From NCBI GenBank assembly GCA_046116545.1, contig CP175956.1, forward strand, positions 1,170,912-1,234,911: 64,000 nt of DNA. The letters are read 5' to 3'. This DNA comes from Candidatus Moraniibacteriota bacterium. GTDB lineage: Bacteria; Patescibacteriota; Minisyncoccia; Moranbacterales; GCA-2747515. This document shows, piece by piece, positions 777 through 63,116 of the stretch (its first letter is position 1; every line of letters starts with the position of its first letter). Below the pieces are notes generated by a model, which saw only the letters and a program-made list of their open reading frames with translations, made no database searches and had not been told where the DNA came from. Position numbers and translations under genes: made by a program.

Positions 777-794
777 AAATAATATTTGCAAATA

Positions 795-1698: not shown

Positions 1699-1710
1699 TT
1701 CAATATCTTA

Positions 1711-2580: not shown

Positions 2581-2606
2581 TCCTAGAATATACTAAAATG
2601 TATTAT

Positions 2607-3188: not shown

Positions 3189-3265
3189 AATTTATTTTTA
3201 AATTTATTATATTTAAAATATATCACAATTTTACTAAAAAATGAAATACCTGTTATACTGTAATC

Positions 3266-3718: not shown

Positions 3719-3734
3719 AAGGTATATCAAATTT

Positions 3735-3772
3735 AAAAACACTGCATAATTATTTATACAGTGTTTTGTTTT
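3735..3772. terminator. Bidirectional terminator between convergent genes
   Basis: Stem aaaacactg/cagtgtttt with A-run before and T-run after. Confidence 0.4.
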
Positions 3773-7687: not shown

Positions 7688-7847
7688 TACACTGTATCAC
7701 ACAAATAAGCTAAAAACAACCTGGAATACCATATCAAAAAAGTCCAACCTAGATTGGACTTTTTTAAAATATCTTCAATTAACTTCTCCTCCTTTTTAAG
7801 GAGGAGACTGAGGGGTGGTTCTATCACATCATTAATTAGAACAGTTT

Positions 7848-18500: not shown

Positions 18501-18872
18501 CATCTCTGAATTTGAGTTTATTGTTACTCCTAGGTAATAGTTTGAATCAAAAGTTATATCTAATACATTATCTCCACTTTCTCCTAGAGTTGTACTAAAT
18601 ATCCCATTTGTTATTGTTAAAGTTTTTGAAGTTGGAGTTCCACATGTTCCTCTACTAGTCCATAGACATGTTCCTCCTGATTCTGCATCATATATTGTTA
18701 ATGTGAAATCATAATCTCCATCTGATACTGCTACGTTATTAGTATCTGTTAGTTTTCCATGATATGTTAGTTCACTGTCTGGTGCAGCTTGTGTAATTGA
18801 AAAATTAAGAATTATTGCTAACGCAATTATTCCTAATATGTAAGTTAATTTGTTTTTGAAAGTTTTTTTCAT
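9567..18872 (-). CDS. Giant (3101 aa) secreted multidomain surface protein with phage tail-fibre-like motifs, two discoidin (F5/8 type C)-like domains, a Gly-rich domain and beta-propeller-like repeats
   Basis: Single uninterrupted 9.3-kb ORF; signal peptide; recurrent VGIGT..P..L.V.G and DLGSS.NRFRDLYLG motifs; duplicated SRAFDDNTSTQWLS...YRYFRLNITAN discoidin-like domains; GGGGGG-rich block; 6 tandem repeats of about 48 aa. Confidence 0.8.
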   Translation of the reverse strand: MKKTFKNKLTYILGIIALAIILNFSITQAAPDSELTYHGKLTDTNNVAVSDGDYDFTLTIYDAESGGTCLWTSRGTCGTPTSKTLTITNGIFSTTLGESGDNVLDITFDSNYYLGVTINSNSEMTPRRKITPTGFALNSHRFNGQTEDYYLNTSNSIQNKTGGLTLGDDFTVNSNDFFVDTVNGRVGIGTDSPNAMLDVRGSAIFNEEGGDNNFRIEGENILNLFSIDASYDSIGIAVNPPIANTLDIGETYPDVIASGTNHYKVVDITGYDLPIAAGVLDSGYRIGLGVQGFTNDSNFQGALNEQYGIWSRVGSNTINPTGTITNSYAIFLDNLDGGANVINKYGVYQKNSTAKNYFAGSIGIGTMVPNSKLEVESAYSGSTMKNQIGNGTFAFQEIYSNSSTDDGNVPYLSFHRGGQTAWQQGLLGNDFVITRGGGASTTDLFSSSLFTILNSNGNIGIGTNTPTNFKLQVAGHIGPDADDTYDLGSSTNRFRDLYLGPNSLHIGENGNEGIISYDTINEAFNFDKAAVFGTSTNAVAGMIRWSGTDLEGYDGSVWNSLTSSGGTSTYTGLTDTPASLSANQIQFTNSAGNAITQNSNFTYDGNNLAIGGSITLNNDASACDVTKEGAMRYNDTSKVMEFCNGTIWGGLSTGTSGSGVTQTQVTLAQGESTTVSGSAIVSITEEQTETDKIQNINYNSEDNYTQEDLKENITQFQVDLVDTGGGTGPDLATGGAVTSSAHHASYPPSRAFDDNTSTQWLSTPGGAAQIQYDLGSGNEAIVSEYSVRSTSVTRAPKDWTFEGSNDANTWTALDVRSAEMGWIANEKRNYSGFINDTAYRYFRLNITANNGDASYTDISELEFFADQHNNKGHFEDVSDTAVSIGSGNTADKVRVGSRFKMEDAWFTITDVTGDGTANESVHITNDNEIELGIYDVDNIYGTYFDGSNAAHTLGQATSVKYVSDIATGGAATASSAYATYVPSRAFDDNTSTQWLSTPGGAAHIQYDLGSGNEAIVYEYSVQGITVARLPKDWTFEGSNDANTWTVLDVRSAEMNWLSNEKRNYSGFTNNTAYRYYRLNITANNGDASYTDISEMTFYEKTLGNYTGAYVTTITNQDGLDSANWTDINSVSVLENLNSQSIFYGVSFNNRHTFKVWTGSAWRYIASKEASVHGGTDGTWYFRDNVDTWSTVGIEDNANSAISKAVESGVMNQMNSTTLESISDADWESSGSFAIDQTTFDLSSTFYSTSDTQNPNLKRIDVSVDATGYAQKNVTDDYTVYQTTGLGDQTLTIVKKSPGTQTVTISSSSAGSSGGTSGINHIFTTAEIWNALDSLDGTEAMSVMIDTTDMTQGHIEIIEDGITIEYIDPKDKITRVIAPNTTLDIKSVATGYDLSTMSFVDATSLTAQDTTVLDIEFNNDGTKLFILGGVGDDINEYTLSTPYDASTITFVDSFSVATQEISPTGFTFNPDGTSMYVIGTTGDDVNQYTLSTAFDVSTATYTDRFSVATEDTGPDDVIFNNDGTKMFVVGSTGIDVGEYTLSTPFDVTTAAFIQQSSVSVEEANPNGIEFSPGGKRMYIVGQNGDEINEYSLARPFDIDSEGHIGTYSLSAQEGVVSGIAFNNDGTKVFIVGSSGDDINEYTLAASVFTGTAHVTVGSSGSSSSSSSLWTANGSDAYYDTGNIGIGTTTPDNFTLQVAGHIGPDTDDTYDLGSSTNRFRDLYLGPSSLHIGEDGNEAVISYNTISNEIEFSTPINLTGSITLTNDTDACDVNKEGAMRYNDTTKVMEFCNGTQWGAFATGSSSGTSIIPHSFVQYDNIDRSFTTAITDGKTWDTVTIRDGFDVDLDYNIPARNASTSWGGGYLYLEYSLNGGAWTAIGNSGYQLAMSNGATDIETHSGMIRMTRAELGSVTGDFDIQFKFRHKSYDGTLLINGSRGTTDEKFSTRVRISEVTSDDSSIVSAGVSSSGGGGIKSIQTFDIAGAHTWTKPAGIETIRVQVIGGGGGGKAYEENYGGGGGSGAGYAEKIIDVSSITSVPVTVGAGGVVNTSGTDTSFDTHVSATGGGKGNRLAVSDAPGSGVGGDINNTGSRGKELSNYQACPAGDGGLSFLGFENAKSAQNGKNAETSIGYGSGGGGGCYDGSTIRSASAGSDGVVIIYEYAGSSESSSLPTCTDGQTLSYNEASSDWECADGVVGNTSSFSINKNTVDQSIPSSTNTLVTWDAEEFDTNNDFDLTTEQFTPTVQGKYLLTFTTRWENLNDSDITQVYIYKNGSVVTGDYGYLTGTYRTNKISVVVDANGTTDYFEVRAYHDNAANKNMSGGYWTNFSGSLIGGGSSSISGGGQTWNLMHVQDQKVTNTAPQTITTGENQLQLNTVMTNEIAGASLASNQITLPAGDYYLEGTGLSFRTGSLGKTRLEIQKIDNTFLAASTTYADYDNATVTGKVTFTEETIIDFLLYTDNIAAQGRSSNRNPYEIYTDLKIWKIEESSGSSSSSYTPGFLYGFNLSNDSGDTDHDVYVSSGYAKDETDLKDLELATGLTKQLDASFSEGDDQGGLFSGTIANDTMYYVFLIEKDDGTTDIGFDTDINATNIPSGFTSYRWLGYVVTDSSSNIEQFIMKGDTIYFAKDTGPLFTTSMSTTWNYPNYSNIIPVTRAETVLFGGTNGYLRISYDSTPSANGFAYELFTANSNTNYGNKTGFHPVEKTQVKADSAGLSVGVKAVELDRGSTSGGSTNSPWTQTGNNIAYTSGNVGIGSSNYGTTADNILTISNSIAPTTSIVNGIQLFAVDQSGSHELRVRDEAGNTTTLSPHNFSTIPGGESEELAWSYYSEKDNKSINVDMTKTVRLIEKLTGQQLIYITDITTGQEVPNLNLIDISNLPTPQKITEIDTQIIDLNDKQLGLSLQTNDASEILNQVQDDIGGINDRHEVLSLQINANTLATETLTEIEDRMDELDGYQSDLASTVSKNSDTVLAINERFLFTIDNNTMSTTRLITTIEGLTVLDDLKVNSIETNTLNINDDITTHDEQGNEINASSIGTATIVAGETEVIVETESINVNSRVFVSPKIPLEQTLAAEDIIDGKSFVVKLLEERLEDLKVDWFIIN
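13870..14770. repeat. Coding tandem repeats (about 144-nt period, 6 copies) inside the giant gene
   Basis: Encodes repeated FNNDGTK.F..G..GDDINEYTLS units. Confidence 0.6.
15595..15928. repeat. Direct repeat copy 1 (about 334 bp, about 90% identical to copy 2) inside the giant gene
   Basis: Nucleotide-level near-identity seen by eye; encodes a duplicated discoidin-like domain. Confidence 0.8.
16297..16631. repeat. Direct repeat copy 2 inside the giant gene
   Basis: See copy 1. Confidence 0.8.
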
Positions 18873-42687: not shown

Positions 42688-45255
42688 CTACTGATAAAAC
42701 CCACTAGCATCAGAGGTAGCAGTATAAGTAACAGAACCAGTATATATTCCTGAAGGTTGTGATGGTGATACATCAACTTTGTAACATACATCAGTTGTTG
42801 ATGAAGTTGAATTATATGCTGTGTGTGCTGCTACTGCTTGAGCTGTTTGTGGTACACCTGCGTATTGGGCATCATCTGATGTTGTTCCTTCTTCGCATAG
42901 GTTTCCTGAGGTTGTCCATACGTTATTAAACGTATTATTTGTTGTATCTGCTTGTGGAAATTGTATTACACTGAATCCTAGACCTTTTGTTGTTGGAGCG
43001 TTCCATGATTCTGTTACTTTTGTTGTTTCATTGAATTGTGTTAGGTCTGGTATTTCATCTGTATTATTTGAATGTACTAGAGTTGTATTTGAAGCTCCAT
43101 TATCATTTATCATTGACAGGTAGTAACCTTGGGTATCATTTGTTGTTACTATACAAGTTGATTGTCCTACTGCTGGAGTTCCTGCTATTACTATTCCTGG
43201 ATTTGCTATTGTTCCTAGTATTACATCGTAATCTCCTGTTACACCATCTTTATCGTAACAATCCATTGATAGGGTTGCATTTACTTCTACATTTAGGTTT
43301 AGGTCATCTATTCCTGATATTGTTCCATCTCCGTTTACAATATAAGTTGTTGCATGGTTTGTTGTGAATGTACATATTCCGTTTGTTACTGTACATGTTG
43401 TATGTAGGACTTCAGTTCCTTGTGCTGCTCCTTCCTCTCTCGAAAGTACATCCAATATCATTCCATTGTAAGCTTCGCTTACAGTTATTTCCATTGTTAT
43501 ATCATTAGTAAAGTCTAATGATATTCCTGGTACACCTATTCTTACTGCTCCTACTGCATTTGGTAGATTTACTTGTTCACTTGTTAATGTATTTTCTGTT
43601 ATGAAGTTTTCAAAGTTAAAGTTTCCATTTAAACTTTCGGTTATTACTGTATTATTTGGAAATATTGCATTTGTTGTATTTGATTGGAATGTTACTTGTA
43701 CTTGGGTTGTTGTTTGGGTTGTGTTATCTATTGTTCCGTTGTCTACTGTTATATATCCATTATCTACTGATTGTTGCATTTCTGAATTATTTGGGTCTGT
43801 GATTATCACTTCTTCTACTACATCATCTACTGATATTATTATTTGTTTTTCGAATTGTTCTTGTAATGATTTGTATATATTTGAATTTATATTCTTTGTT
43901 GCATCGTTATAAAAATTTGTAACAACTAGATAATTTTCCATTCCTATCATAAAGTATTCCCAACTTGTTGCACCACTTGTTGCGATTGATTGAAATTCTA
44001 CAAAAGTTGAACCGTTCCATTTGTAGATTTTTGAGTTTATATTATATGTTGAACCATTATAATTATTTGCAACAACTAAATAATGTTCTGTGTCTATTGT
44101 AAAGTATTCCCAGTCTGATGCACCATTTGTCGCAATAGACTGAAACTCCACAAAAGATGTTCCATTCCATTTGTAGATTTTTGAGTTTATATTTGTTGAG
44201 CCATTGGAATAATTTGCGACTACCAGATAATCATCTACACCTATTGTGAAATGCTTCCAACCCGATGCACCGCTTGTTGCGATTGATTGAAAATCTACAA
44301 AAGATGTTCCATTCCATTTGTAGATTTTTGAGTTTATATTATATGAACCACTATATGAATTTGCAAGTGCCAAATAGTTATCTGTACCAATTGTAAAGTA
44401 TTCCCAACTATTTGCGCCAGTCGTTGCAATTGATTGAAATTCTACAAAAGATGTTCCATTCCATTTGTAGATTTTTGAGTTTATATTTCTCGATGAACCA
44501 TTATAATAATTTGTAACAGCTAGATAATCATCTATACCTATTCTGAAATGTTCCCAATTTCTTGCACCATTTGTTGCAATTGATTGAAGCACTCCAAAAG
44601 ATGTGCCGTTCCATTTGTAGATTTTTGAGCTTATGTTATATGTTGAACCATTATAATAATTTGTAACAGCCAAATAATCATCGGTACCTATCGTAAAGTG
44701 TTCCCAGTCTGATGCACCGCTTGTTGCGATTGATTGAAAATCTACAAAAGATGTTCCATTCCATTTGTAGATTTTTGAGTTTATATTATATGTTGAGTTA
44801 TTATGATAATTTGCAACAACCAGATAATCATCTGTGCCTATTGTGAAATATTCCAAGTCTTGTGCTCCATTCGTTAAAATGCCTTGTTCCAATACAAAAT
44901 CAGAATATGAATCAGTTGTTTTCACTCTTGTTGAATAGTTATTATCGCCAGGAGTACCTCCTAGGTCTTCTGGATTTTCATAATCTGGTGTAAAGTTTAG
45001 ATTTAGATTATCTCCATCTATTGTGAATTTGGAATTATCTTCGTCTCCTATTCCATTTATTAATTCATATGTGTATGGAGAATTTCCTCCTGTTGTAGTT
45101 AAAGTTCCTGAAGTTGTTCCACTTGGTGTATTTTCATCTATACTATCTGAACTTCCTCCATCTATTTGTATATCTGTTATTGCTGCTTGTGTTGTCTGTG
45201 TTAAAAAAAGTATAACAATCAATGTTATTGGGAATAGTAATATATATTTTTTCAT
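42688..45255 (-). CDS. Secreted 855-aa protein: N-terminal cadherin-like domain plus eight EAR/EPTP-like beta-propeller repeats plus a C-terminal region
   Basis: Signal peptide; IDENTPSGTTSGTL...YTYELI...FTIDGDNL cadherin-like pattern; 8 repeats SKIYKWNGTSFVDFQSIATSGASDWEHFTIGTDDYLAVTNYYNGS resembling LGI1/ADGRV1 EPTP repeats (IYKWNG, YLVVAN). Confidence 0.7.
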   Translation of the reverse strand: MKKYILLFPITLIVILFLTQTTQAAITDIQIDGGSSDSIDENTPSGTTSGTLTTTGGNSPYTYELINGIGDEDNSKFTIDGDNLNLNFTPDYENPEDLGGTPGDNNYSTRVKTTDSYSDFVLEQGILTNGAQDLEYFTIGTDDYLVVANYHNNSTYNINSKIYKWNGTSFVDFQSIATSGASDWEHFTIGTDDYLAVTNYYNGSTYNISSKIYKWNGTSFGVLQSIATNGARNWEHFRIGIDDYLAVTNYYNGSSRNINSKIYKWNGTSFVEFQSIATTGANSWEYFTIGTDNYLALANSYSGSYNINSKIYKWNGTSFVDFQSIATSGASGWKHFTIGVDDYLVVANYSNGSTNINSKIYKWNGTSFVEFQSIATNGASDWEYFTIDTEHYLVVANNYNGSTYNINSKIYKWNGSTFVEFQSIATSGATSWEYFMIGMENYLVVTNFYNDATKNINSNIYKSLQEQFEKQIIISVDDVVEEVIITDPNNSEMQQSVDNGYITVDNGTIDNTTQTTTQVQVTFQSNTTNAIFPNNTVITESLNGNFNFENFITENTLTSEQVNLPNAVGAVRIGVPGISLDFTNDITMEITVSEAYNGMILDVLSREEGAAQGTEVLHTTCTVTNGICTFTTNHATTYIVNGDGTISGIDDLNLNVEVNATLSMDCYDKDGVTGDYDVILGTIANPGIVIAGTPAVGQSTCIVTTNDTQGYYLSMINDNGASNTTLVHSNNTDEIPDLTQFNETTKVTESWNAPTTKGLGFSVIQFPQADTTNNTFNNVWTTSGNLCEEGTTSDDAQYAGVPQTAQAVAAHTAYNSTSSTTDVCYKVDVSPSQPSGIYTGSVTYTATSDASGFYQ
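43905..44930. repeat. Coding tandem repeats (about 147-nt period, 8 copies) for the EAR/EPTP-like blades
   Basis: ccatttgtagatttttgagtttatatt recurs at a regular period. Confidence 0.75.
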
Positions 45256-50511: not shown

Positions 50512-51711
50512 CTATGTCGTAACTTCTGCAGTTATTTCTTCACTCTTTTCTTCTTCATCTCCCTTAAGAATGTCGATATCCTTCTTGAACGCTATAATTA
50601 GAGATACTAAGAAAGCTACCAGAAATGGTCCCACCAACGCACCCTTGAGACCGTATGCATTCATCCCTGCAATCATGCAAAGCATCAATGCAACAGCTGA
50701 TAATGTTGCTTCCTCGCCACCTAAGACTTTGAACTTGATCCAGTTATCACATGTTGCAACAAGAACTGTTGCAACAAGTAAAACACCTGTTGCTATATAA
50801 TGACCTTGCACTGCACTAATAACAACTAACCCGATTACTACTGGGGTTGCTACAAGCGGAAGTCCACAAGCAGATGTCGCAATAGCCAGTATGGCAATAA
50901 CCAAAAGCACAGCTATGTCTACAGGCATATACATAAAACAATATATCCCCACAATAAGCGTAGCCAAACCTCCCTGTCCCAAGCCAACTGCTACCATACT
51001 TTTTACAAGACTATTCATAACCTTCTGGACATCCAGGAGGATTTGTCTCGTATCCTCTTTTCCAAAAAAGGCGATATGCGGAAGCAGCCACTCTATCATC
51101 TTTTTACCTCTCAAAAGAAAAATAATTACGGCTACTACAGTTATGCTTATATCAACAAAGATCTTCCACACTTTTGCTAAAGTACCTGTAACTGCTCCGA
51201 GAACTGATTTACTTAATTTGCCAATCATACCACCACCCTGAAGTAGGACAGTGACACTGCCAAAATTTGAATCAGCTATCTCTATAGCCTTGTCCACAAA
51301 CATTGTTGACCATTCATGTTTTTTCTTTACTTTTACAAGCAAGTCCACAGCCTCTTCCTGAAATTCCGTAACCATAGTACTTCCATCCTTCACAGCCTCA
51401 ATTCCAGTATCAATCTTGTTGATACCATATACCCCAAAGCCCACCATCACAATAAAACACATGCCAATAAATGACATTATCATTATTGCTATAGCCGTCT
51501 TTGCTCTTCCTCCCAAAAACTCACTGAGAGGCTGATATACCGTTGGATACAACGCCGATGCTAATACTGCACCAATAAAAAATTGTGATACAAATGGTGT
51601 TATCATGGGCATAGTCACCCACATCATAAAAGCAACAAAAACTGCCCCTGCTACTTTCATTACTACTACCTTGTCTTTGGCTGTGTACCTGATATTTGGT
51701 CGTGTTTTCAC
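50512..51711 (-). CDS. Polytopic membrane protein, possibly AI-2E family transporter-like
   Basis: 399 aa, about 8-9 TM with a soluble loop after TM3; C-terminal GLKGALVGPFLVAFLV region resembles the AI-2E end motif; the assignment is weak. Confidence 0.4.
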   Translation of the reverse strand: MKTRPNIRYTAKDKVVVMKVAGAVFVAFMMWVTMPMITPFVSQFFIGAVLASALYPTVYQPLSEFLGGRAKTAIAIMIMSFIGMCFIVMVGFGVYGINKIDTGIEAVKDGSTMVTEFQEEAVDLLVKVKKKHEWSTMFVDKAIEIADSNFGSVTVLLQGGGMIGKLSKSVLGAVTGTLAKVWKIFVDISITVVAVIIFLLRGKKMIEWLLPHIAFFGKEDTRQILLDVQKVMNSLVKSMVAVGLGQGGLATLIVGIYCFMYMPVDIAVLLVIAILAIATSACGLPLVATPVVIGLVVISAVQGHYIATGVLLVATVLVATCDNWIKFKVLGGEEATLSAVALMLCMIAGMNAYGLKGALVGPFLVAFLVSLIIAFKKDIDILKGDEEEKSEEITAEVTT

Positions 51712-51824: not shown

Positions 51825-53000
51825 CTATACTGCATGTTCTTGAGATATTTTATCCCATTTGATCATGCCCTCCTTAAATCGTTTTGATCGAAGATACTCA
51901 ATGAACATTCCCGCTTCAATACAACGTGATTTTGGTGGATTAACTTCAAGCTTGCCACCAGCTTTGTGACCTGCTGCAATTGCATCTGCTTTATTATTTC
52001 CTGACTTGAAAAATCTCTTCAAATCATCCCAACTACATCCGTCGAAATCCTCCGGAACTTGCAAACGATATTTTGTTTGTCCATCAGCATCTATCATATC
52101 CATCATGGTATACGATGATCCTGGATCCTGTATGCACCTAGCAATTAGCTCAGGCATACTAGTTGGAACAGGCTCGATGTTTTCCCCAAGAAGTTTAACA
52201 ACAGGAGCATTTTCATGCATTACGTCAAACGCAACTACAATATGAGCCTTTGGATTTACATTTCTCATAATGATACATAATGCGATGTTATAATTATCAT
52301 CACCTGTATCAATCAAAATTCTAGCAGCATCTGCGATACGTGCCTCTTTGAGAAATTTGTCAGACTTAAATCCTGTCTTGGTGCTTTTGCCACTGACAAT
52401 TCCACTCATTGGGTTTTTGTCATACCTCTCCTTATCAAAGCATAACAATAATTGTCGTTTTTCTCTACGAGTGTCGGCCAAAATATTATCAATGATAATA
52501 TTTGTTCTATTTCGTTGAAACGAAATAATTGGTATATGATCTTTTATACTCACAATGATATCTCCATGATATATTTTGTACGAAATTTTCCAAAAATCTT
52601 TAACCAACATTGCACCATAAGCAACTAAAAAGGCCGGGTAAAAATTGAATGAAAATGCAGAAACTAGCCTACCCATTTCTGACACAGGAGCCACATCTCC
52701 AAGTCCAACTGTTGAACTCAAAGCACTGACAAAATATAAATAATTTATCCAATTAGTTATATCGTTGTCAACAGGCTCAAATGAAATAAATATTCCCCAA
52801 TTAAAAAGAAAATATGACACCCAAATTATGACGGGCCACTTTGACTTAAATAGCTCTTTTTCTATTTCTAGAAAAATAAACGCTGCAGTAGCCGACTGTG
52901 ACTCCAGTCTCCCATATACAAACCCACGTACTTTTTTTGCAATACTTAGCAAATTAGCACGTATACCTGATAATATATTTTTTGACTTATTCACATTCAA
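51825..53000 (-). CDS. Two-TM potassium-channel-like protein with a noncanonical TVGLGD pore motif and a C-terminal cytoplasmic domain
   Basis: TM1, then pore helix plus STVGLGDVAP, then TM2 (KcsA-like layout); the C-terminal ~250 aa are not clearly RCK (no GxGxxG). Confidence 0.5.
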   Translation of the reverse strand: MNVNKSKNILSGIRANLLSIAKKVRGFVYGRLESQSATAAFIFLEIEKELFKSKWPVIIWVSYFLFNWGIFISFEPVDNDITNWINYLYFVSALSSTVGLGDVAPVSEMGRLVSAFSFNFYPAFLVAYGAMLVKDFWKISYKIYHGDIIVSIKDHIPIISFQRNRTNIIIDNILADTRREKRQLLLCFDKERYDKNPMSGIVSGKSTKTGFKSDKFLKEARIADAARILIDTGDDNYNIALCIIMRNVNPKAHIVVAFDVMHENAPVVKLLGENIEPVPTSMPELIARCIQDPGSSYTMMDMIDADGQTKYRLQVPEDFDGCSWDDLKRFFKSGNNKADAIAAGHKAGGKLEVNPPKSRCIEAGMFIEYLRSKRFKEGMIKWDKISQEHAV

Positions 53001-53460: not shown

Positions 53461-54447
53461 TTATTGTTCTTTTTTTGGGAGATCTAGCCTAGACTCCTCA
53501 TCAGGTTCCCAGTCTAGTTCAAAAGCATCATCAATTTCTTCTTCCTCAACTTCAAAACCAATTTCGCCTTCATCAATATCCAACAATGAAAGTTCCCGAT
53601 CATCATCAAGTTCCGAATCTCCTCCATCTTCTATATCAAATATTCCTAAATCCAAATCATCCTCTTCATCATCAAGAAAAGTAGATGATACAGACTCATC
53701 CTCAATTTCATCTTCTTGTGTATCTGTCATTACTGGTTCAGTATCCAATATTGATATAGTGCCTATCTCTGAATTCATTGCGGTTAGTTTGTCAGATAAT
53801 TCACCCAATTCTGCTGTAACAACCTGCTGTAACATGTTGATTAAACCACTGAAATGATCTACTAAATGATCATTATTTTCACCTACCTGTTGTAATAAAT
53901 TGGCAACAATAGTATCAATAGCCAGCTCTCCAGTTTGAGTGCCACTATGCTTATAAAACTTTTGCAATGATGCGTCCATGGCAGTGCTCAATCGTGTAAC
54001 CTCTCTTCCTTCGACATCACGCATTTCAGTGAGTTCTTCACGTAATTCATCACCCTCTTTACGCAATGCTACAATCATTTGTTGTGCCTCTGCCTCACCT
54101 TCCTGCAATCGTTTACGTTCTTTTTCAACTAACTCAAGAGTCTTTTTCACACCTCCCAACTCACTAACACGCTCATAGAGAGCATCAGCCTTGTCTTCTT
54201 CCTTCACTAATCGCTTATTAAATTGAAATGCAAGTCTACTAAACCCTGCTACCATGAAAGCCAGTGCTACAATACAAATTGTAGCCCCAGCATTCATGCC
54301 CATCCATGCTAACAACTCGCTTGATGAATCTGCAATATTTGTAGTTAAATAACTCCAAGATACTTGTGCTGACTCTCGTAAAGTTTCAATCATTTTTCCC
54401 ATCTCCAAGTTATAATTTTGTATTGTAAAACAACAATTAATTTGCAA
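53461..54447 (-). CDS. Single-pass membrane protein with a coiled-coil domain and a highly acidic C-terminal tail
   Basis: TM (ATICIVALAFMVAGF), a long Glu/Lys-rich helical region, and a C-terminal DDEEDDLDLGIFDIEDGGDSELDDD tail; the real start is probably an internal Met. Confidence 0.45.
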   Translation of the reverse strand: MQINCCFTIQNYNLEMGKMIETLRESAQVSWSYLTTNIADSSSELLAWMGMNAGATICIVALAFMVAGFSRLAFQFNKRLVKEEDKADALYERVSELGGVKKTLELVEKERKRLQEGEAEAQQMIVALRKEGDELREELTEMRDVEGREVTRLSTAMDASLQKFYKHSGTQTGELAIDTIVANLLQQVGENNDHLVDHFSGLINMLQQVVTAELGELSDKLTAMNSEIGTISILDTEPVMTDTQEDEIEDESVSSTFLDDEEDDLDLGIFDIEDGGDSELDDDRELSLLDIDEGEIGFEVEEEEIDDAFELDWEPDEESRLDLPKKEQ

Positions 54448-54562: not shown

Positions 54563-55783
54563 TTATTTATTGCGCTGTGCTTTTTCAAAATCTCCAACAG
54601 TTTGTAAATCATCTTCATCAATAGAATCCTCTGTCATATCCACTTCAGAAAGATACACAAATGTATTCAACTTTTTAAGCATGAGCGCAGCCATCTCCAA
54701 TAAGTCAATTGGATCTGTAGAGTCATTGATATCTACAACTGGCTTTGTTGATACCATTTTTGGAATTAACTCAAGTCCTTCAACACTCTTTTCAAGTTGC
54801 TTCATCAACGCCTGTCGATCACCTGCAAGCAATCTTGTGATCAGATCCTCATCAACTGATTTATTCACAATAATTACTTTTTTCTTAATAGTGTCAAGTT
54901 GGTTACTGGATTCTGCATTCAATTCTGCAACAGTCCATGTGTGAATGCCTGAACGTTCACTCTGTATAGCAGTGAGACGCTTATCTATATCAACTTGATA
55001 TTGCTTGATAGCTTTTTCAACAAGCTTATCAAGATCAACTTCCGGTGCACTCTTAGCATCCTCAAGCTTCTTCACCAGACCGTCAGTAAGAGTTTCCAGT
55101 GACTTATTAATTGAATCACTTCCGTCTCCAAGTTGTTTCTTTACAAAATCATGCAATTCCTGCATCGGAACTTTCATCTCTGCGGCCACATTTTCAGCCA
55201 GCGCTTTACCATTATCATCAGGACCGATAGTAATCACTGCACCAATGACTTCAGCCATTTCTTTGAGATTAGTCAGGACCTCTTTGTTAAAAATTGGCAC
55301 AGAAATTGGATTTTCATCAACTCCTGATGATTGTTTCAATTCACCCACAGGACTTACCTCAAGTTCCTTGAAAAAATCAACCCCATAAAACTCACGCAAG
55401 GCTTCTAAATTACTCAACTTACGTCGACCAATTTTATCAGCTATTTCTTGCTCAAGCTTTTGCTTGTCTTGTGTCAGCTTTTTAACATCATTCTCTGACT
55501 TCTTGATGATTTTATCTAACACCTTTATTTGATCTTGACTTGCTAAGTCATATTTTTTCAATCGCGCAATTTTTTTCAATCGCTTTTTAGTGGCACGTTT
55601 CTGTGCCCAAATCACCGCACACAGTACGATAAATAGAATCCCAACTCCTCCAATTGCAATAGCAAACGGAGAATTTGTCAAAAATTCTTCCCCAAAATTT
55701 GTCATTACATTCTTAACAGACTCAATAATTTCGCCTACTTCAACTCTAATGTTGCCATCAGTTACACTTATCACACTTGCCAT
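54563..55783 (-). CDS. Single-pass membrane protein with coiled-coil domains and an acidic C-terminus (paralogous architecture to 53461-54447)
   Basis: TM (FAIAIGGVGILFIVLCAVIW), then KRATKKRLKK, then coiled-coil segments, then a C-terminal EDSIDEDD. Confidence 0.45.
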   Translation of the reverse strand: MASVISVTDGNIRVEVGEIIESVKNVMTNFGEEFLTNSPFAIAIGGVGILFIVLCAVIWAQKRATKKRLKKIARLKKYDLASQDQIKVLDKIIKKSENDVKKLTQDKQKLEQEIADKIGRRKLSNLEALREFYGVDFFKELEVSPVGELKQSSGVDENPISVPIFNKEVLTNLKEMAEVIGAVITIGPDDNGKALAENVAAEMKVPMQELHDFVKKQLGDGSDSINKSLETLTDGLVKKLEDAKSAPEVDLDKLVEKAIKQYQVDIDKRLTAIQSERSGIHTWTVAELNAESSNQLDTIKKKVIIVNKSVDEDLITRLLAGDRQALMKQLEKSVEGLELIPKMVSTKPVVDINDSTDPIDLLEMAALMLKKLNTFVYLSEVDMTEDSIDEDDLQTVGDFEKAQRNK

Positions 55784-55868: not shown

Positions 55869-55967
55869 CTACTCCAATTTAAAAATCCAACGCACAAAAA
55901 TACTAAATGATATAACTGCCACAACAATTGCACCCAAAAGTGCACTTGCATGTATCCAATTATCCAT
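55869..55967 (-). CDS. Unannotated 32-aa hydrophobic mini-protein (MDNWIHASALLGAIVVAVISFSIFVRWIFKLE)
   Basis: Manual translation; one TM; its start overlaps the stop of the 55960-56223 ORF by 8 nt. Confidence 0.25.
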   Translation of the reverse strand: MDNWIHASALLGAIVVAVISFSIFVRWIFKLE

Positions 55968-56223
55968 AACCTATCACCCTCCCAAATCTAAATGTGGTAC
56001 TACAGCCTCGCTTCCTTTGTAACCATAAAAAATATACAAAAACAAATAAAGCAATACACAATATCAACATAGCTCGAATAGATTCCATCACAAGGGCTGC
56101 TGTTCGATATACAGTAATACTGATTAATCTAAATGGCATCACAAGAAATATTATCCAAATAAGTTTAGACATATCACTCACCTTCTTGAAATTATTTTTC
56201 AAATTTTCTGTCTTTAGGCACAA
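55960..56223 (-). CDS. Small two-TM membrane protein (possibly starting at the internal Met, about 56175)
   Basis: 87-aa ORF; two hydrophobic helices; its 5' end overlaps the 46-aa mini-ORF. Confidence 0.35.
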   Translation of the reverse strand: MCLKTENLKNNFKKVSDMSKLIWIIFLVMPFRLISITVYRTAALVMESIRAMLILCIALFVFVYFLWLQRKRGCSTTFRFGRVIGYG

Positions 56224-56332
56224 AAATAATACAAGCTATAAAACTTGTAACAATCACTGATACAATAATAATCGTCTCAATGTTATTTGCAATAACTGGT
56301 ACTGACTGCAATAAATCCTGAATCATTATCAT
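56192..56332 (-). CDS. Unannotated 46-aa single-TM mini-protein (MIMIQDLLQSVPVIANNIETIIIVSVIVTSFIACIIFVPKDRKFEK)
   Basis: Manual translation of the minus strand; ATG at 56332; TAA stop at 56194-56192. Confidence 0.25.
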   Translation of the reverse strand: MIMIQDLLQSVPVIANNIETIIIVSVIVTSFIACIIFVPKDRKFEK

Positions 56333-56490
56333 GCTATTTTCTCCTCAATATTCAATTATTAAATTACATCTGAAAAATATACCTATACTTTTCACAATTA
56401 TATTTACAAAAAATAAATACTGTTGTAAAAACTATTGTGCTTTGAGTATTGATATCAATACTCAAAGCACGCTCCTTTAAATTGTTGAAT

Positions 56491-58263
56491 TTATAATGTC
56501 ACAACCTGATCTTCATCCATAGGCTCTGCCTTTTGGATAGTTGCCCATGGCATTTTGGATATTGCTGTCATAATGTTTCTCTGAGCATACATTCCCATGC
56601 CCATGCCTACATGTACAGCTGATCCCAAGACCTTGCCAGATGCATTGATGACGCTTTGACCTGTTGCCTGCAATGCCTGCAACTTTCCACCATCAATACT
56701 AATTTGACGTAAGCGTCTAGCCTCTTTTCTACTATCTTTATTGATAAGCATTACGAGACGATTATTGCCGATTACAAATCGACCTATCTTCCACTTACGA
56801 AACATGTACATACGATGTTTCCCACCTAGTGACATCTTGCCAAAAAATGTTTTTGCTAATATTACAGAAATGAATTCAAAGACTTTGTTCACACCAAGTT
56901 TTCTCAAACCTGCTCCAAACAATCCCATCACAGTCCTGAAACCAGCAAAAATTTTAATGAGAACGCCCTTTGGAAAAAGTGGATAAATAAAATCAGCAGA
57001 ACCACCCATCAACCAAATTGCTGTCATGCCAATAATGCACCAAAACATCTGTCTGGGAAATGATAATGATTTATAATGAGTCACTGCTCTATCTTTGTAT
57101 TTACCAAAGAATAACTTCGCCCACATAACTTTTTCATTTTTTAACGCTCTTGCTTTCTTATTCGCAAAAAATTGCGTAATAGCAAGTGCAATGCCTAACT
57201 TAATAGCACCTCTTGCGCTCACCTTTTGTGCTGCAAAGACTCCAAAATTTTTGGCCTGTGCCCATGAAAGAGTAGTTATCAAAGTAATGCCACGTCCCCA
57301 CCACAGTTTTGTAAAACTGATGATGTAACCTGTGTACAAAATTGCTTTACTCTTTATGAAAATAAGCACTTTTAATATGATACTTCTCCAAACAATGGTT
57401 ACAGCAGCAAAAAAGTGTACATCCCACACCAATTGGCAAATGAGAATAATTATACTGAGTATGATACATAACCATATTACAGGACAAATCTGTCTTTTAA
57501 CCTTTACAGTAAGCCTGCTCCATATACGCCACATTATCGTAGTTCCCATAATTGCAGCAACTTCGATAACAAACATAGCTTTGGAGATGGTCAATCTATA
57601 ACACACCCACTTCACTGCAAATGTAACAACTCCTACTTCCCCACAAAAAAATAAAATATTGCGAGCTTTCTGAGTCATTGATTCAAATACAGCATTCAAA
57701 TTATGCAATATACATAATATTGGCAATGTAATTGTCACCAAAATACCAAACGGTACAATTGATTTGCATACCAGCTTATGTACATTCACAACAGTGGCCA
57801 TAAAAATATCCTGTGCCAATTTCTGACTGAAATTCACAATGGAATGCCACAAAATTATTGCATCTTGCAGAGACCTTACATCACCCTTGTTATGTAACAA
57901 GGCCAAGGCAAATGCCCAAACAGGCACCCATCTCAATAAAACACGAATTGACTCTTTTTTTTCATCTGACAATCTCGGCCATATAAATGACCATGTGGAC
58001 CACGTCAATACTAACGTAAACCAGATTGTAGCAAATACAACGATACTACCGTGTTGCCAATGTGACCCTCCAAAGATTGCTATTGCCATCTGCAATATAA
58101 CTGCATACTCCAAGAAAAAAATAAATACACTTTTCACACGTGAATGTACTACTTGTTGCAATAAATTTCCTTGATGCAATAACATACATGGTCTCATCAA
58201 TAGCACGATAGCAAAGATGGACCACAGGTCATGCCTTGTAATACCAAGCGCTGTAATATCCAT
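56491..58263 (-). CDS. Large (590 aa) polytopic membrane protein, Trp/Lys/Cys-rich, unknown family
   Basis: At least 10 hydrophobic segments; no transporter-like G/A-rich motifs; first gene of a tightly packed four-gene minus-strand operon. Confidence 0.5.
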   Translation of the reverse strand: MDITALGITRHDLWSIFAIVLLMRPCMLLHQGNLLQQVVHSRVKSVFIFFLEYAVILQMAIAIFGGSHWQHGSIVVFATIWFTLVLTWSTWSFIWPRLSDEKKESIRVLLRWVPVWAFALALLHNKGDVRSLQDAIILWHSIVNFSQKLAQDIFMATVVNVHKLVCKSIVPFGILVTITLPILCILHNLNAVFESMTQKARNILFFCGEVGVVTFAVKWVCYRLTISKAMFVIEVAAIMGTTIMWRIWSRLTVKVKRQICPVIWLCIILSIIILICQLVWDVHFFAAVTIVWRSIILKVLIFIKSKAILYTGYIISFTKLWWGRGITLITTLSWAQAKNFGVFAAQKVSARGAIKLGIALAITQFFANKKARALKNEKVMWAKLFFGKYKDRAVTHYKSLSFPRQMFWCIIGMTAIWLMGGSADFIYPLFPKGVLIKIFAGFRTVMGLFGAGLRKLGVNKVFEFISVILAKTFFGKMSLGGKHRMYMFRKWKIGRFVIGNNRLVMLINKDSRKEARRLRQISIDGGKLQALQATGQSVINASGKVLGSAVHVGMGMGMYAQRNIMTAISKMPWATIQKAEPMDEDQVVTL

Positions 58264-58278
58264 CTAAATTGCCTCCAA

Positions 58279-58569
58279 TTACTTTTTCATTTCAATCACA
58301 CGATTACTGTACGGCGCATCTGATTTATTTTTTTCGATTATTGCCTGATTAAGCAATATCGCAATAATAATTACCCATGCCAAAATGCCAAGGATAAAAT
58401 TACGCGTCGCTCTAACAGCACATTCACGAATAAACTTAATTGGTTTCTCTTTGATTTCCTCAATCGTGTACATAGACATCTCCTCAAAAAAAGAAAAGTG
58501 ACCACCACGACGATATCGTAGTGGCCACAAGAATATTTCATCTGTCACATTAATTATTATCCACTTCAT
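58279..58569 (-). CDS. Small single-TM protein
   Basis: 96 aa; 20-nt overlap with the upstream gene. Confidence 0.35.
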   Translation of the reverse strand: MKWIIINVTDEIFLWPLRYRRGGHFSFFEEMSMYTIEEIKEKPIKFIRECAVRATRNFILGILAWVIIIAILLNQAIIEKNKSDAPYSNRVIEMKK

Positions 58570-59074
58570 CAGTAGACATTTGTCCAGATAATCTTCTAAT
58601 CAAGATTCCCGTAGCCATCCCAACAGCAAACAGAATCGAAATGATAAATGTAGTATACCATTGCGCCTCACTTGCCTTTGTTAAATCAAGGTAACCATGA
58701 TCAATTAAGAACCACGTGGCCAAACCTGAAATGCCAAACATTGCAATAAGCCCAACTGTACCAAGTGCTTTCTTTGCCAGAAAGGCAAAAATTCCCCACA
58801 CAATAACAGCAGCTCCCACAGCAAGTGCTTTGGAACTCATAGCTGCATCAGATGTTTGTACCCATTTATATAAGCAGTACTGTGTGGGATTATATGTAGC
58901 CCACACAACAACCAAAGCATAAACCAACCTGGTATATAGAACTTCTACAAAATTTTGATTCTTGAATGATTTGAAAAAACTCGTAAATGCGAATTTCAAC
59001 ATTCCCTTTCCAGCAGCCTTTCCATGTTTAGTCGCAACAGCTTTTGCATTTTCCATCTTTTGCCTTACCTCCAT
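58550..59074 (-). CDS. Four-TM membrane protein, unknown family
   Basis: 174 aa; contiguous with the 59075-59371 gene. Confidence 0.45.
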   Translation of the reverse strand: MEVRQKMENAKAVATKHGKAAGKGMLKFAFTSFFKSFKNQNFVEVLYTRLVYALVVVWATYNPTQYCLYKWVQTSDAAMSSKALAVGAAVIVWGIFAFLAKKALGTVGLIAMFGISGLATWFLIDHGYLDLTKASEAQWYTTFIISILFAVGMATGILIRRLSGQMSTDEVDNN

Positions 59075-59371
59075 CTAAATTGATTTGAAAATATCGAGAG
59101 CATCATCATAGAGCTCATCAGATATTTGAAAACATTTTTCACCTGTATCAACAACATATGTAGTAGTTGTATCTGTCACATCAACAACAGCTACTGCCAT
59201 TGAACATGTGGTGCACATAGCTATATTAGCCTGTACCTCTGGTGGCATTTTTTTGCAAAATGCATGCCATCCATATGAAGTACTCACTATTATCACAGTT
59301 GGAATAAAAAATAAATACAATATTTTTTCCTTCCATGTAAATCTCCAGGCTATACTGAACCAATCCAACAT
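59075..59371 (-). CDS. Small N-terminally anchored protein with Cys-rich and Thr-rich segment
   Basis: 98 aa; TM followed by CKK...CTTCS...TDTTTTYVVDTG. Confidence 0.35.
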   Translation of the reverse strand: MLDWFSIAWRFTWKEKILYLFFIPTVIIVSTSYGWHAFCKKMPPEVQANIAMCTTCSMAVAVVDVTDTTTTYVVDTGEKCFQISDELYDDALDIFKSI

Positions 59372-59562
59372 AATTTCTCCTCCTGAATTATAAATTCAAC
59401 AATTGTTAAAATACTTTTTTGAAACATATTTATGTCACAAAATTTTATATACTATCTACAAATAATCTACAAAATTCTGTACATAACGCCTTAAAACTTC
59501 CAAAATGTTAATAAAATGACACGACCACTTATTATACATAATATTTTAAATTTGTCAATAAA

Positions 59563-59594
59563 AATTCCCACTGATGAATTCATCAGTGGGAATT
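59563..59594. terminator. Perfect 32-bp palindrome (aattcccactgatgaattcatcagtgggaatt) acting as a terminator for the 59641-60564 gene
   Basis: Read directly; it contains GAATTC at its centre; A-run upstream on +, so a T-run on the minus strand. Confidence 0.5.
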
Positions 59595-59640: not shown

Positions 59641-60564
59641 TTAAATTTGAGCTTTTAATTCTTCAAACTTTACAAGTCCCTGACTCTTCCAGCCCTTAAT
59701 CTTGAGCCATGCTTTCTGAGTCCATGTGGGCTGTGGTGAAAAGTCTTCCGAAGACATTCCTTTTAAGATATCTTTGGTAGCATCAACCATTTCAGCAACA
59801 TCTACTGAATACTGAGCTGATGAATCAAACACAGCAACTACAGGCATCATAACAGTTGATACTTCTCCGAATCCAGGAATAGTAACCTTTCCAGCTTTGA
59901 GACCCTCTTTAATCAAAGAGCGCGACAATACACCGGTAACCTTCAGTTTTTCCTTGTCAATTGCCTGCATCAGCTTGGAATACGGATTAGGATATCGCGA
60001 TACAAACCCAACCATATTAGGATTGGACTTCAGAGCGTTTAAAAAATCAGCTTCTGATGTAAAGCTTTGAATGCGTGATTTATCCAATCCATGCGAAATG
60101 GCAAAAGAGGCTTCTCCACTATCCATCCCACCCAGGACTGCCAATCTCAGTCGCTTCATGTTCAAGAGTGTTTCCCATGTGCGAAGTTTTGACTTGGATC
60201 CAAGAAATGTAATAGTTTTTTCCTGTCCGACAAGCAACATAGCCTCTGAAAATGGTGCTATCATCACATCATTCATGCCTTCTGCTTCGGCAACTTTTTG
60301 CATTGCCCAGCCAAAATGAAGATTTCCAGCTTTTACATTATCACAATTAAATTTACTTCCACCTGGGGAACCCACTTCAATTGGGATCAGTTGTTCTTCA
60401 GCCTTCTGCTTGAGAATATTGGCGGTTCGATAAAACTCACCAGTTTCTCCACCTGAACCAAAACAAACAACTCCATCAGGACAAGCTGCCATAGCCATTG
60501 AAGCCGCTGTAAATACAAACGCCACTGCTGTGACCGCCACTGTCTTTAATAAGTCTCTTTTCAT
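59641..60564 (-). CDS. Periplasmic solute-binding protein, TAXI-family TRAP receptor-like
   Basis: Lipoprotein-like signal (AMAAC); CFGSGGETGEFY resembles the TAXI GGTGGTYY motif; strong GGAGG Shine-Dalgarno 9 nt upstream. Confidence 0.4.
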   Translation of the reverse strand: MKRDLLKTVAVTAVAFVFTAASMAMAACPDGVVCFGSGGETGEFYRTANILKQKAEEQLIPIEVGSPGGSKFNCDNVKAGNLHFGWAMQKVAEAEGMNDVMIAPFSEAMLLVGQEKTITFLGSKSKLRTWETLLNMKRLRLAVLGGMDSGEASFAISHGLDKSRIQSFTSEADFLNALKSNPNMVGFVSRYPNPYSKLMQAIDKEKLKVTGVLSRSLIKEGLKAGKVTIPGFGEVSTVMMPVVAVFDSSAQYSVDVAEMVDATKDILKGMSSEDFSPQPTWTQKAWLKIKGWKSQGLVKFEELKAQI

Positions 60565-61870: not shown

Positions 61871-62170
61871 CTATGCTATAAATATATCCTGAACAATTCC
61901 TTCTTTTTCTTCAAAATCAACACCCCGCGTATTAAGTGCCTCAATCATCTTATCACCAAATTTACCTGCGATAATTTTATCAACTGACTTATCTGCTAGC
62001 ATTTTAGCAACTCCCAATCCTGCACCTCCCCCTCCTGTGCTAAATGGATTTTTTATTGTTTCAAGTAAAGTTCCATTTTCATCAAAAATTAAAAAGAATG
62101 GTGCACGTCCTGCTTGTGAAGATACTGTGGAATCTATATTTTTATCCATTGATCCAACTGCAATTTTCAT
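61871..62170 (-). CDS. NifB/NifX-family (dinitrogenase FeMo-cofactor-binding-like, MTH1175-like) small protein
   Basis: 99 aa; MKIAV.S...LD..V....GRAP.F.IFD.......E..KN pattern and a central GGGAG loop. Confidence 0.55.
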   Translation of the reverse strand: MKIAVGSMDKNIDSTVSSQAGRAPFFLIFDENGTLLETIKNPFSTGGGGAGLGVAKMLADKSVDKIIAGKFGDKMIEALNTRGVDFEEKEGIVQDIFIA

Positions 62171-62694
62171 ACTTTATTCGCCTCCTCTCCTTTTTTCAAT
62201 ATTTGCCTTACAACAATGCCATTAATAACTGAAAATATAATAATATATATACTTAATACTACTGTAAAAGCAAGTCCAAAATAATAAATCATCATTGGCA
62301 AAAGTGGTAATTTAATAGACCTACTATAAAGAAATGCTGCTAAAAAAGAATCTTTCACTCCTTTTTCTTTCAAATCTGAAAGAAGTGGAAACCACATATA
62401 AATCGGACCAGATGATATAATACCACTTACAATTGCGATAACCCAACCACGTATTTTTTTACTATGGCCTAAATGCGTAACTAACATATCTGTTGTTACA
62501 AATATATTAAATATAAACATCAAACCAAAAACAATAATTACTGTTGGCATAATTTGCTTAAATGTTTGCCAAAAAAATGTAAGTGATTCCTGAAATAGCA
62601 TCATATCTACAAAAGCAAGTCCACCATAAAGGCAAGCTACAAAAATAAGTAGCCACCACTTTCCCTCCACATTGTGTATTAATGCACGAATCAT
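62167..62694 (-). CDS. Membrane permease subunit (second half of a split DUF318/ArsP-like permease), tentative
   Basis: 175 aa, about 5 TM; 4-nt overlaps with both neighbouring genes. Confidence 0.35.
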   Translation of the reverse strand: MIRALIHNVEGKWWLLIFVACLYGGLAFVDMMLFQESLTFFWQTFKQIMPTVIIVFGLMFIFNIFVTTDMLVTHLGHSKKIRGWVIAIVSGIISSGPIYMWFPLLSDLKEKGVKDSFLAAFLYSRSIKLPLLPMMIYYFGLAFTVVLSIYIIIFSVINGIVVRQILKKGEEANKV

Positions 62695-63116
62695 AGTAAA
62701 TTAAGAGTAATAACAGTTAAAAAAGAAATAATAATTGCACTCACAAAACTAGCAATATTACGTGTCCAAGTGAATCTCTTACCCATCATGACAATCTCAG
62801 CTGGAATCTGCACCGTACCCACTGTAACCCAAGTCAAAATAAACGCTGTAACAGCAATCAAACTTACACCATTATTCAAAAGCTCACCACCTATAACATA
62901 ACTAGTCATGGGATTACCCGCAGCAATACTTCCCACAGCAGCTCCCAAAAATGCATCAACAACCTTATTTCCAATAAAAAACTGCGTATACATATCATCA
63001 GGCACCACAGTAATTATAAAACTAGTCAACAACAAAATACCAACCAAAGTCGGAAACGACATCTTAATTGCACCAAATGTTTGCTTTGCAGCTTTTTTAA
63101 CTCTCACTTTTTTCAT
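62691..63116 (-). CDS. Membrane permease subunit (first half of a split DUF318/ArsP-like permease), tentative
   Basis: 141 aa, about 4 TM; VGSIAAGNPMTSYVIGGELLNNG resembles the DUF318 loop but without the Cys residues. Confidence 0.35.
   Translation of the reverse strand: MKKVRVKKAAKQTFGAIKMSFPTLVGILLLTSFIITVVPDDMYTQFFIGNKVVDAFLGAAVGSIAAGNPMTSYVIGGELLNNGVSLIAVTAFILTWVTVGTVQIPAEIVMMGKRFTWTRNIASFVSAIIISFLTVITLNLL

Follow-up and report, generated by a model that had tools for sequence, protein, structure and literature searches.

A conserved four-gene membrane protein operon beside a TAXI-type binding protein gene in Candidatus Moraniibacteriota

Results

The locus and its genes

The DNA analyzed here, called the window, is a stretch of 64,000 nucleotides (nt) from the chromosome of a Candidatus Moraniibacteriota bacterium (GenBank assembly GCA_046116545.1, contig CP175956.1, positions 1,170,912 to 1,234,911); coordinates are those of the window unless another locus is named. 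The segment is low in GC (~33%), and its genes lie nearly all on the minus strand. On that strand, four genes for membrane proteins form a single promoter-to-terminator operon that extends from 59558 to 56437. In the order of transcription they encode a protein of 98 amino acids (aa), here called s98, a member of the DUF6524 family, a 64-aa protein (s64), and a 590-aa polytopic protein (Big). The operon is preceded by the gene of a TAXI-type solute-binding protein. It is followed by three mini open reading frames (ORFs), m46, m70, and m32, and by genes for two coiled-coil proteins, a K+ channel-like protein, and an AI-2E family transporter (Table 1). An original prediction, made from the sequence alone, had described a tightly coupled membrane operon with overlapping mini-ORFs at 55869–59371, and all the ORFs listed in it were found in place on the minus strand.

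The operon genes are also carried by JGI contigs from seven samples, which represent the same strain, since their identity to the window is at least 99.97%. For comparison, contigs were recovered for ten members of the Big family. Together with the window they give eleven distinct loci (the window, L001–L006, L016, L017, L019, and L021), among which L001 is the closest relative of the window.

Table 1. Features of the operon and its surroundings in the window, in the direction of transcription (TM, transmembrane; SD, Shine-Dalgarno sequence; bp, base pairs)
Feature	Coordinates	Strand	Remarks
TAXI-type solute-binding protein, 307 aa, signal peptide with lipobox-like MAAC	59641..60564	-	Transcribed as its own unit, directly upstream of the operon
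Intrinsic terminator of the TAXI gene	59563..59594	-	14-bp stem and T-run; kept in L001 with changes on both arms
Operon promoter, TTGACA-16-TATAAT	59531..59558	-	12/12 consensus matches; identical consensus promoter in L001
5' leader, ~160 nt, with two AATTTTGT(A/G) repeats	59372..59530	-	84% identical to L001, taken together with terminator and promoter; no Rfam match
s98, 98-aa N-in/C-out single-pass protein with Cys-bearing external tail	59075..59371	-	SD AGGAGG; GenBank XLQ20089.1
DUF6524 protein, 168 aa	58550..59056	-	PF20134, 94.4 bits; SD GGAGGT 10 nt upstream of ATG
Intra-operon terminator-like hairpin (14 bp, 7 GC) and U-run	58488..58528	-	z = -4.4; abuts SD of s64
s64, 64-aa single-pass protein	58279..58473	-	ATG 58473; SD GAGGAG 6 nt upstream
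Big, 590-aa polytopic protein	56491..58263	-	SD GGAGG
Operon terminator, 15-bp stem	56437..56470	-	z = -7.1
m46, 46-aa single-TM mini-ORF	56192..56332	-	Outside the operon; SD GAGGAG; GenBank XLQ20085.1
m70, 70-aa two-TM mini-ORF	55960..56172	-	ATG 56172; SD AGGTGA; listed from NCBI and JGI/IMG
m32, 32-aa single-TM mini-ORF	55869..55967	-	SD GGAGG; listed from JGI/IMG only
cc406, N-out single-pass protein with cytoplasmic coiled coil and acidic C-terminus	54563..55783	-	Terminator follows at 54542–54509
ac328, 328-aa single-pass coiled-coil protein with very acidic tail	53461..54447	-	Found only in this genome among the loci compared
K+ channel-like protein (Ion_trans_2 and TrkA_N; RCK-type)	51825..53000	-	Same-block homologues in L002, L006, L016, L017, L019
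AI-2E family transporter	50512..51711	-	PF01594, 1.4e-16

Conserved gene order

The core order of the unit is a DUF6524-like gene, a hairpin with a U-run, an SD, a small gene with one TM segment, the Big gene, and a terminator. It is found in the window, L001–L006, L016, L017, and L019. L021 keeps the small gene and Big; at 469–3770 of this locus, Big is directly followed by a TAXI-like gene and by one for a DUF6524-like protein of 275 aa, and these may be the start of a second tandem module. A DUF6524-like gene is next to the Big gene in all the loci that cover the position.

The Big proteins are only 22–36% identical between lineages, with one close relative (L001) at 82%, and the genes outside the conserved block differ between the loci. 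Mere residual synteny is therefore an unlikely explanation of the order. The order also gives DUF6524 its first conserved genomic partners. The original prediction of small subunits co-expressed with a large polytopic core holds for the genes upstream of Big, whose order recurs in the eleven loci, and is not supported for the mini-ORFs downstream.

Transcription signals and start codons

The operon promoter is placed just past the terminator of the upstream TAXI gene. The stretch of terminator, promoter, and leader matches positions 2633–2807 of L001 at 84% identity, and L001 keeps the promoter together with both flanking hairpins. The two leader repeats are a possible operator. A riboswitch or other known RNA was considered for the leader and rejected, because no Rfam family matches it, the sole match being a sub-threshold hammerhead (E = 0.59).

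The genes at 59371–56491 had been described as contiguous or overlapping, with 59075 and 59074 abutting and an overlap at 58550–58569. The first ATG of the 174-aa ORF, from which the abutment was derived, has no SD. The true start is the ATG at 59056, which leaves a spacer of 18 nt; the relative with 82% identity begins at the equivalent codon, and GenBank also calls a protein of 168 aa. The 96-aa ORF, from which the overlap was derived, is over-extended: its first 32 codons, which lack an SD, cross a 14-bp GC-rich hairpin and U-run (58528–58498), and L001 reads this stretch in a different frame. With the starts corrected, the intergenic spacers in the operon are 18, 76, and 15 nt. The tight packing was therefore overstated, the abutment and overlaps being products of longest-ORF calling, and as evidence of translational coupling the 'overlaps' are largely start-codon artefacts.

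A terminator-like hairpin within the operon

The hairpin and U-run between the DUF6524 gene and s64 occupy the same position in ten of the eleven loci, the same ten that show the core order. The stem sequences are entirely different between lineages while the position is constant, with z-scores from -1.6 to -5.6. A position kept despite unrelated stem sequences points to selection for structure.

Since the U-run abuts the SD of s64, there is no room for a promoter, and s64 and Big would be expressed from read-through transcripts only. They should consequently be made in lower amounts than s98 and DUF6524, which would imply that the intra-operon terminator sets a fixed and unequal subunit dosage, with s98 and DUF6524 above s64 and Big. 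A leader peptide reading across the hairpin was considered and rejected, as the open frames differ between the window and L001.

At the 3' end of the Big gene a strong hairpin was found in all six loci that were folded. The terminators after Big in the window (56437–56470) and in L004 (~2818–2851) have an identical 12-nt stem arm (GTGCTTTGAGTA / TACTCAAAGCAC), despite the Big proteins of these two loci being only ~27% identical.

The Big protein family

Big is given 564 aa in GenBank. This start is probably 26 codons too short, considering the SD and the conserved N-terminal motif 'MD...DLWSI'. The protein has about 11–13 hydrophobic helices. Residues ~304–405 and ~450–590, which are cytoplasmic by a positive-inside reading, jointly contain 39 Lys/Arg and 9 Asp/Glu. 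The net charge of +47 (+28 to +52 across the family) is the outstanding feature of the protein.

Big had been called rich in Trp, Lys, and Cys. Trp is indeed high (3.9%, as compared with 1.3% in the proteins of the window; 2.6–4.4% in the family), while Lys is near the average (7.1% versus 6.5%), and the excess of Cys (1.5% versus 0.8%) is true of the window protein and not of the family.

Big contains an internal duplication of a two-helix unit at residues ~45–110 and ~202–263 (hhalign 96%, E = 2.8e-9). There is apparently one copy of the unit in the short homologues, and there are apparently three in P0010. The invariant residues of the family are R351, P431, W491, R512, R516, and R519.

The family is very small: an exhaustive HMMER pass over 1.84 billion representatives yielded 12 proteins. 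A word-index protein search retrieved only Big itself and one 82% relative, and its repetition with a profile retrieved the same two. When 185,579 GTDB species genomes and JGI metagenome contigs were scanned by pattern, no relative was found, and tblastn gave no match in phage or plasmid records.

Neither alone nor as a profile did Big match anything in Pfam, NCBIfam, PADLOC, PHROGs, or the PDB sequences. No Pfam family was matched at E ≤ 1, and the 11 relatives gave only three single matches at chance level. The AlphaFold2 model of Big is all-helical with a pLDDT of 55.6 and a pTM of 0.29, and a Foldseek search of the PDB with it returned only noise (E > 2); because the models of Big and of the DUF6524 protein are unreliable, the fold search is uninformative.

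The original prediction had found no recognizable family for the large core and had named an O-antigen polymerase as a match that would explain the cluster. Big matches no known family, and neither Wzy_C nor a related Pfam domain was found in it. The possibility that Big or the DUF6524 protein is a distant paralogue of the neighboring AI-2E or K+ channel proteins was rejected, as hhalign detected no relation. Judged from these searches, the Big family is a new protein family.

The small proteins of the operon

s98 has a single N-terminal TM helix after basic residues, and its external tail carries four Cys. It is detectable in four loci, the homologues of the window protein being in L001, L002, and L003.

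The 168-aa protein matches PF20134 at 94.4 bits (cut-off 27) over model positions 3–130 of 131, and GenBank also names it a DUF6524 family protein. Its layout is a basic N-terminus, about four TM helices, the sequence RRLSG near the C-terminus, and then an acidic tail. The R-R-x-S/T-G motif and the acidic tail recur in all the positional equivalents. The motif (window 58550–58600) resembles a basophilic Ser/Thr-kinase site. In L002 and L017, a PP2C phosphatase gene followed by a ~575-aa gene lies ~4–7 kb upstream, with a weak Pkinase match in L002 only.

A word-index search with the DUF6524 protein found only four close relatives. In Pfam the proteins of the window and of the related loci match DUF6524 alone, and a DUF6524 profile has no match in the PDB. 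The AlphaFold2 model of the protein is all-helical and unreliable (pLDDT 50.2). Neither DUF6524 nor this gene cluster was mentioned in the literature searched. The sole DUF6524 match in the plasmid collection is locus L015, plasmid pAB510b of Azospirillum sp. B510 (NC_013856.1, 45488–46313), where two tandem 134-aa DUF6524 genes are divergent from MlaFE-like ABC, Mic60-C-like, and MlaA genes.

s64 has homologues in L001 and L003. In the other loci there are positional equivalents of 40–68 aa, some of which had been missed by the annotators; for example, in L004 and L016 unannotated small one-TM genes were found at the expected place. At 3668–4032 of L001 there are two small one-TM ORFs of 60 aa each, overlapping at ATGA, in place of the single one in the window. 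The DNA similarity between the window and L001 breaks at this site, so that the content of small subunits varies even between close relatives.

The adjacent TAXI-type protein

The protein encoded beside the operon, which the original prediction had missed, is the only lead to function. Its single-sequence scores are below the curated cut-offs, both for TIGR02122 TRAP_TAXI (1.3e-6, 27.5 bits; cut-off 84.35) and for PF16868 NMT1_3 (3.4e-4, 20.7 bits; cut-off 27). A profile of five positional orthologues matches solved TAXI solute-binding proteins at 1.4e-12, over the N-terminal ~65 residues only. On these matches the protein is tentatively classed as a divergent TAXI-type binding protein.

A TAXI-like gene, whose product is a secreted protein of 307–344 aa, adjoins the unit in all nine loci that reach far enough. 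Lipobox-like signal peptides are present in the TAXI proteins of the window and of L017. The relationships among the TAXI proteins do not follow those among the Big proteins. Between the window and L017 (TAXI gene at 7768–8694), TAXI is 72% and Big 23% identical; between the window and L001 (TAXI gene at 1585–2535), TAXI is 26% and Big 82% identical. In L016, TAXI groups with those of L019 and L021, and Big groups with that of L017. The TAXI gene has therefore been replaced in situ more than once while its place beside the unit was kept. Of all the observations, this replacement with retention of place points most strongly to a functional link. The ORFs of at least 400 aa in the 64-kb window include no TRAP or TTT permease, and none is present in the precomputed Pfam lists of the longer loci.

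The mini-ORFs downstream of Big

Contrary to the original proposal, the mini-ORFs do not belong to the operon, because the 15-bp terminator at 56470–56437 separates them from the Big gene. The overlaps reported among them stand in part. The supposed 87-aa ORF with a TTG start is really the 70-aa ORF with an ATG start; m46 does not overlap it, being separated by a 19-nt spacer, and m32 does, by 8 nt (ATGgaTAA). Similarly, the two mini-proteins had been called unannotated, which is not correct for m46, a GenBank entry; m32 is the one listed from JGI/IMG only.

The SDs of the mini-ORFs are 5–6 nt long and normally spaced, and such an SD is present at only ~8% of random ATGs in the window. To estimate the chance expectation for the 653-nt region, composition-matched random sequence was simulated 3000 times and searched for ORFs no shorter than 30 aa that have a TM-like segment and are preceded by an SD of 5 nt or more. 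Three such ORFs are observed and 0.02 expected, and none of the 3000 simulations contained two or more. With an SD and a TM segment in each, they are probably genuine small membrane proteins.

No homologue of any of them was found in the related loci or elsewhere in the window. In eight of the nine other loci, the region after Big is only 160–240 nt long and has no TM-like ORF; L016 has one unrelated 63-aa ORF. The contig of L001 ends 49 nt past Big and thus does not extend over the region. Two further origins were considered and rejected: fragments of a decayed DUF6524 paralogue or other gene, as there is no similarity in the window or the loci, and a repeat or mobile element, as there are no repeats except the region's own terminator. 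m46, m70, and m32 are probably real small membrane proteins that were added in this strain, within the next transcription unit, and do not belong to the core subunits.

Other genes of the window

The loci often have, inserted behind Big, a single-pass coiled-coil protein whose end is acidic. A homologue of cc406 directly follows the Big gene in L002, and positional equivalents are found in L004 and L005. Among the PADLOC and PHROG defense or phage models, only weak matches to cc406 and ac328 were obtained, which are read as coiled-coil noise. Further downstream, the RCK-type K+ channel gene is in the conserved block of seven loci, and the AI-2E gene is present in all nine loci whose contigs reach downstream. 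The order of these two genes varies, with AI-2E first in L016.

The window also encodes RNase P RNA, UvrB, a Mur ligase, MurJ, and glycosyltransferases. An 855-aa protein (42688–45255) contains seven EPTP repeats (1.3e-96), a domain that is mostly eukaryotic. A 3101-aa ORF (9567–18872) contains F5/8 type C and glycine-rich domains. At 62167–63116, two adjacent ORFs of 141 and 175 aa with a 4-nt overlap each match one half of the ArsP_1 permease model and constitute a split permease gene; the next gene encodes a 99-aa protein with a Nitro_FeMo-Co (NifX/NifB-like) domain.

Discussion

The reading that we favor, with a probability of about 40%, is that s98, the DUF6524 protein, s64, and Big would form an undescribed hetero-oligomeric complex of the cytoplasmic membrane, which is fed solute or gated by the adjacent lipid-anchored TAXI protein. 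The operon product is perhaps a nutrient importer. The joining of the four products into one complex is proposed from the conserved gene order and the common transcription signals, and we infer every functional step of the mechanism from sequence. The lipid-anchored TAXI protein would pick up a small solute on the cell exterior and then dock to the complex. Big would be the translocating or gating core, the DUF6524 protein a four-helix accessory in the manner of DctQ and TctB, and the single-pass proteins s98 and s64 the small subunits. The whole would amount to a system for uptake or sensing that depends on a binding protein and whose membrane component is not of the TRAP type, as in the TAXI-GltS pairing that has been proposed.

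A more specific form of this reading, which we consider rather doubtful, is that the complex of DUF6524, small subunits, and Big represents a further novel type of binding-protein-dependent secondary transporter, in which the exchangeable TAXI receptor would reset the substrate specificity. As read here, such a class would be unrelated in sequence to TRAP, TTT, and GltS, and confined to the rare Candidatus Moraniibacteriota lineage.

Several observations weigh against a complex served by the TAXI protein. Profile searches of Pfam, NCBIfam, and the PDB tie neither Big nor DUF6524 to any transporter, and the AlphaFold models are too poor for use (pLDDT 55.6 for Big and 50.2 for DUF6524). Big is odd for a carrier, considering its net charge of +47 and an N-terminal hairpin whose repeat number varies from one to three. 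Most of its invariant residues are Arg, Trp, and Pro that lie in loops or cytoplasmic segments; they are not polar residues inside helices. The TAXI gene is its own transcription unit, TAXI 'orphans' are known, and the AI-2E transporter in the same block could be an alternative partner of the TAXI protein. The only context of DUF6524 found outside the lineage, in Azospirillum, adjoins Mla-like lipid-trafficking genes; the DUF6524 proteins there have no basic N-terminus, and there is no Big or TAXI gene nearby.

Some of these features would suit a lineage-specific architectural or scaffolding membrane complex that is not a transporter, an alternative that we regard as unlikely though the best placed of those considered. 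Through its very cationic cytoplasmic regions, Big would attach to anionic lipids or to the acidic tails carried by DUF6524, cc406, and ac328, and the complex would organize or shape the membrane, for example at the cell pole, at the site of division, or where the cell touches a host. In this case the TAXI protein would be a surface lipoprotein that has no relation to the complex or only shares its location. The high positive charge throughout the family, a Trp content as expected for interfacial helices, the varying number of TM-hairpin repeats, and the acidic C-terminal tails on all DUF6524-like proteins are consistent with such a scaffold. So are the coiled-coil single-pass protein with an acidic end directly after Big in the window, L002, L004, and L005, and the MlaA, MlaFE-like, and Mic60-C-like genes beside DUF6524 in Azospirillum. 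However, a scaffold leaves unexplained why the TAXI gene is kept beside the unit through several replacements, the coiled-coil partner is missing in L003, L006, L016, and L019, and no homology to a known membrane-shaping family was found.

An island of ion-homeostasis genes, in which Big and the small subunits would make up or regulate an ion channel, or a conduit of the mechanosensitive type, together with the RCK-type K+ channel and the AI-2E transporter, is improbable. The K+ channel and AI-2E genes are linked to the unit in most loci despite changes in order, and a variable number of N-terminal helices before a conserved C-terminal core recalls the MscS-like channel families. However, there is no sequence similarity to any channel family, by hhalign neither Big nor DUF6524 is related to the neighboring AI-2E or K+ channel families, and the Foldseek matches, including AtMSL10 (E = 2.2), are meaningless on a model of pLDDT 55.

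Still less probable is the absence of any joint function, with unrelated membrane genes whose order reflects common descent in a small, slowly rearranging lineage and with hairpins that are ordinary terminators. A terminator hairpin does lie behind nearly every gene in the stretch, and the Big family is confined to one rare lineage. This explanation is opposed by the retention of the order at 22–36% identity while the genes outside the block differ, by the lack of promoter room between the internal U-run and the SD of s64, and by the s64-Big gap of 15–25 nt in the loci listed. Equally improbable is the original proposal that the 46-, 70-, and 32-aa peptides belong to this machine as further subunits. 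Their translation is very probable (0.02 such ORFs expected by chance), gene callers find them, and it is well known that large transporters can be bound by small membrane proteins, among them KdpF, AcrZ, and CydX, but a strong terminator lies between them and the operon and no homologue was found in any other locus.

Uncharacterised membrane operons are common in such genomes, and the function proposed for this one is read from its sequence. If the TAXI-served complex is real, it would be a route of nutrient uptake in bacteria labeled as members of the Candidate Phyla Radiation (CPR), which are believed to rely on scavenging. Even without transport, the locus provides a new protein family, partners for DUF6524, and a conserved intra-operon terminator.

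Comparison with known systems

TAXI-type TRAP transporters (TCDB 2.A.56) consist of a TAXI solute-binding protein and a fused DctQM permease. The present unit resembles them in the adjacent, co-oriented TAXI-type gene and in the combination of a small protein of ~4 TM helices with a large polytopic one, a single-pass protein being encoded exactly between the two; fused QM permeases carry a linker helix between Q and M. It differs in that no homology to DctQ or DctM was found at any threshold tried, the small and large genes are separate, Big is highly cationic with a variable repeat number, and the binding protein is on its own transcript. For DctM-type domains in particular, there was no match at E ≤ 1 in Pfam or NCBIfam, either in Big or in any of the 12 family members, and none with the family profile in the PDB sequences.

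The TTT systems, composed of the binding protein TctC, the small 4-TM protein TctB, and the large TctA, have the same three-part logic and similar subunit sizes. In contrast to these, the binding protein here is TAXI-like and not of the Bug/TctC type, and there is no match to TctA or TctC. Matches to TctB were sub-threshold only (E = 0.078 for the DUF6524-like protein of L006, and E = 0.18 for an unrelated 238-aa neighbor).

For the TAXI-GltS system of Bordetella pertussis, it is reported from genome context and gene fusions that the gene of a TAXI solute-binding protein can be coupled to the gene of a non-TRAP carrier and, in certain genomes, fused with it; according to the authors, experiments have yet to verify the coupling in function (Jaques et al. 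2025, PMC12344293). It constitutes a third class of secondary transporter that uses a binding protein, only TRAP and TTT being known before 2025, and more such classes are wanted in order to learn whether such transporters must work by an elevator mechanism (PMC12344293). The unit described here is similar in having a TAXI gene beside the gene of a non-TRAP membrane protein, with no TRAP permease nearby. The partner in Bordetella is a recognizable Na+/glutamate symporter, and the link consists of translational coupling and gene fusions, whereas the partner here is of no known family and the link is conserved adjacency only. By the Pfam results, none of the genes that flank the TAXI gene has a GltS-type domain, whether in the window or in the related loci. 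If the favored reading is true, a TAXI protein kept beside a complex unrelated to any carrier would be a further example of the class sought in that report.

Within the uncharacterised family DUF6524 (PF20134), the 168-aa protein is a clear member; the Azospirillum pair differs from it in length (134 aa) and in having no basic N-terminus. The 30–70-aa proteins of the locus, with one or two TM helices and encoded beside a large polytopic protein, resemble KdpF, AcrZ, MgtS, and CydX in these respects. They have no sequence relation to these, and here the small genes upstream of Big are conserved by position while those downstream are not conserved.

The unit is thus not a TRAP, TTT, TAXI-GltS, or Wzy system, because the defining membrane domains of these were looked for and not found. 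The alternative to a carrier is simply an uncharacterised lineage-specific complex. If a carrier at all, the unit would be most like a tripartite binding-protein-dependent one.

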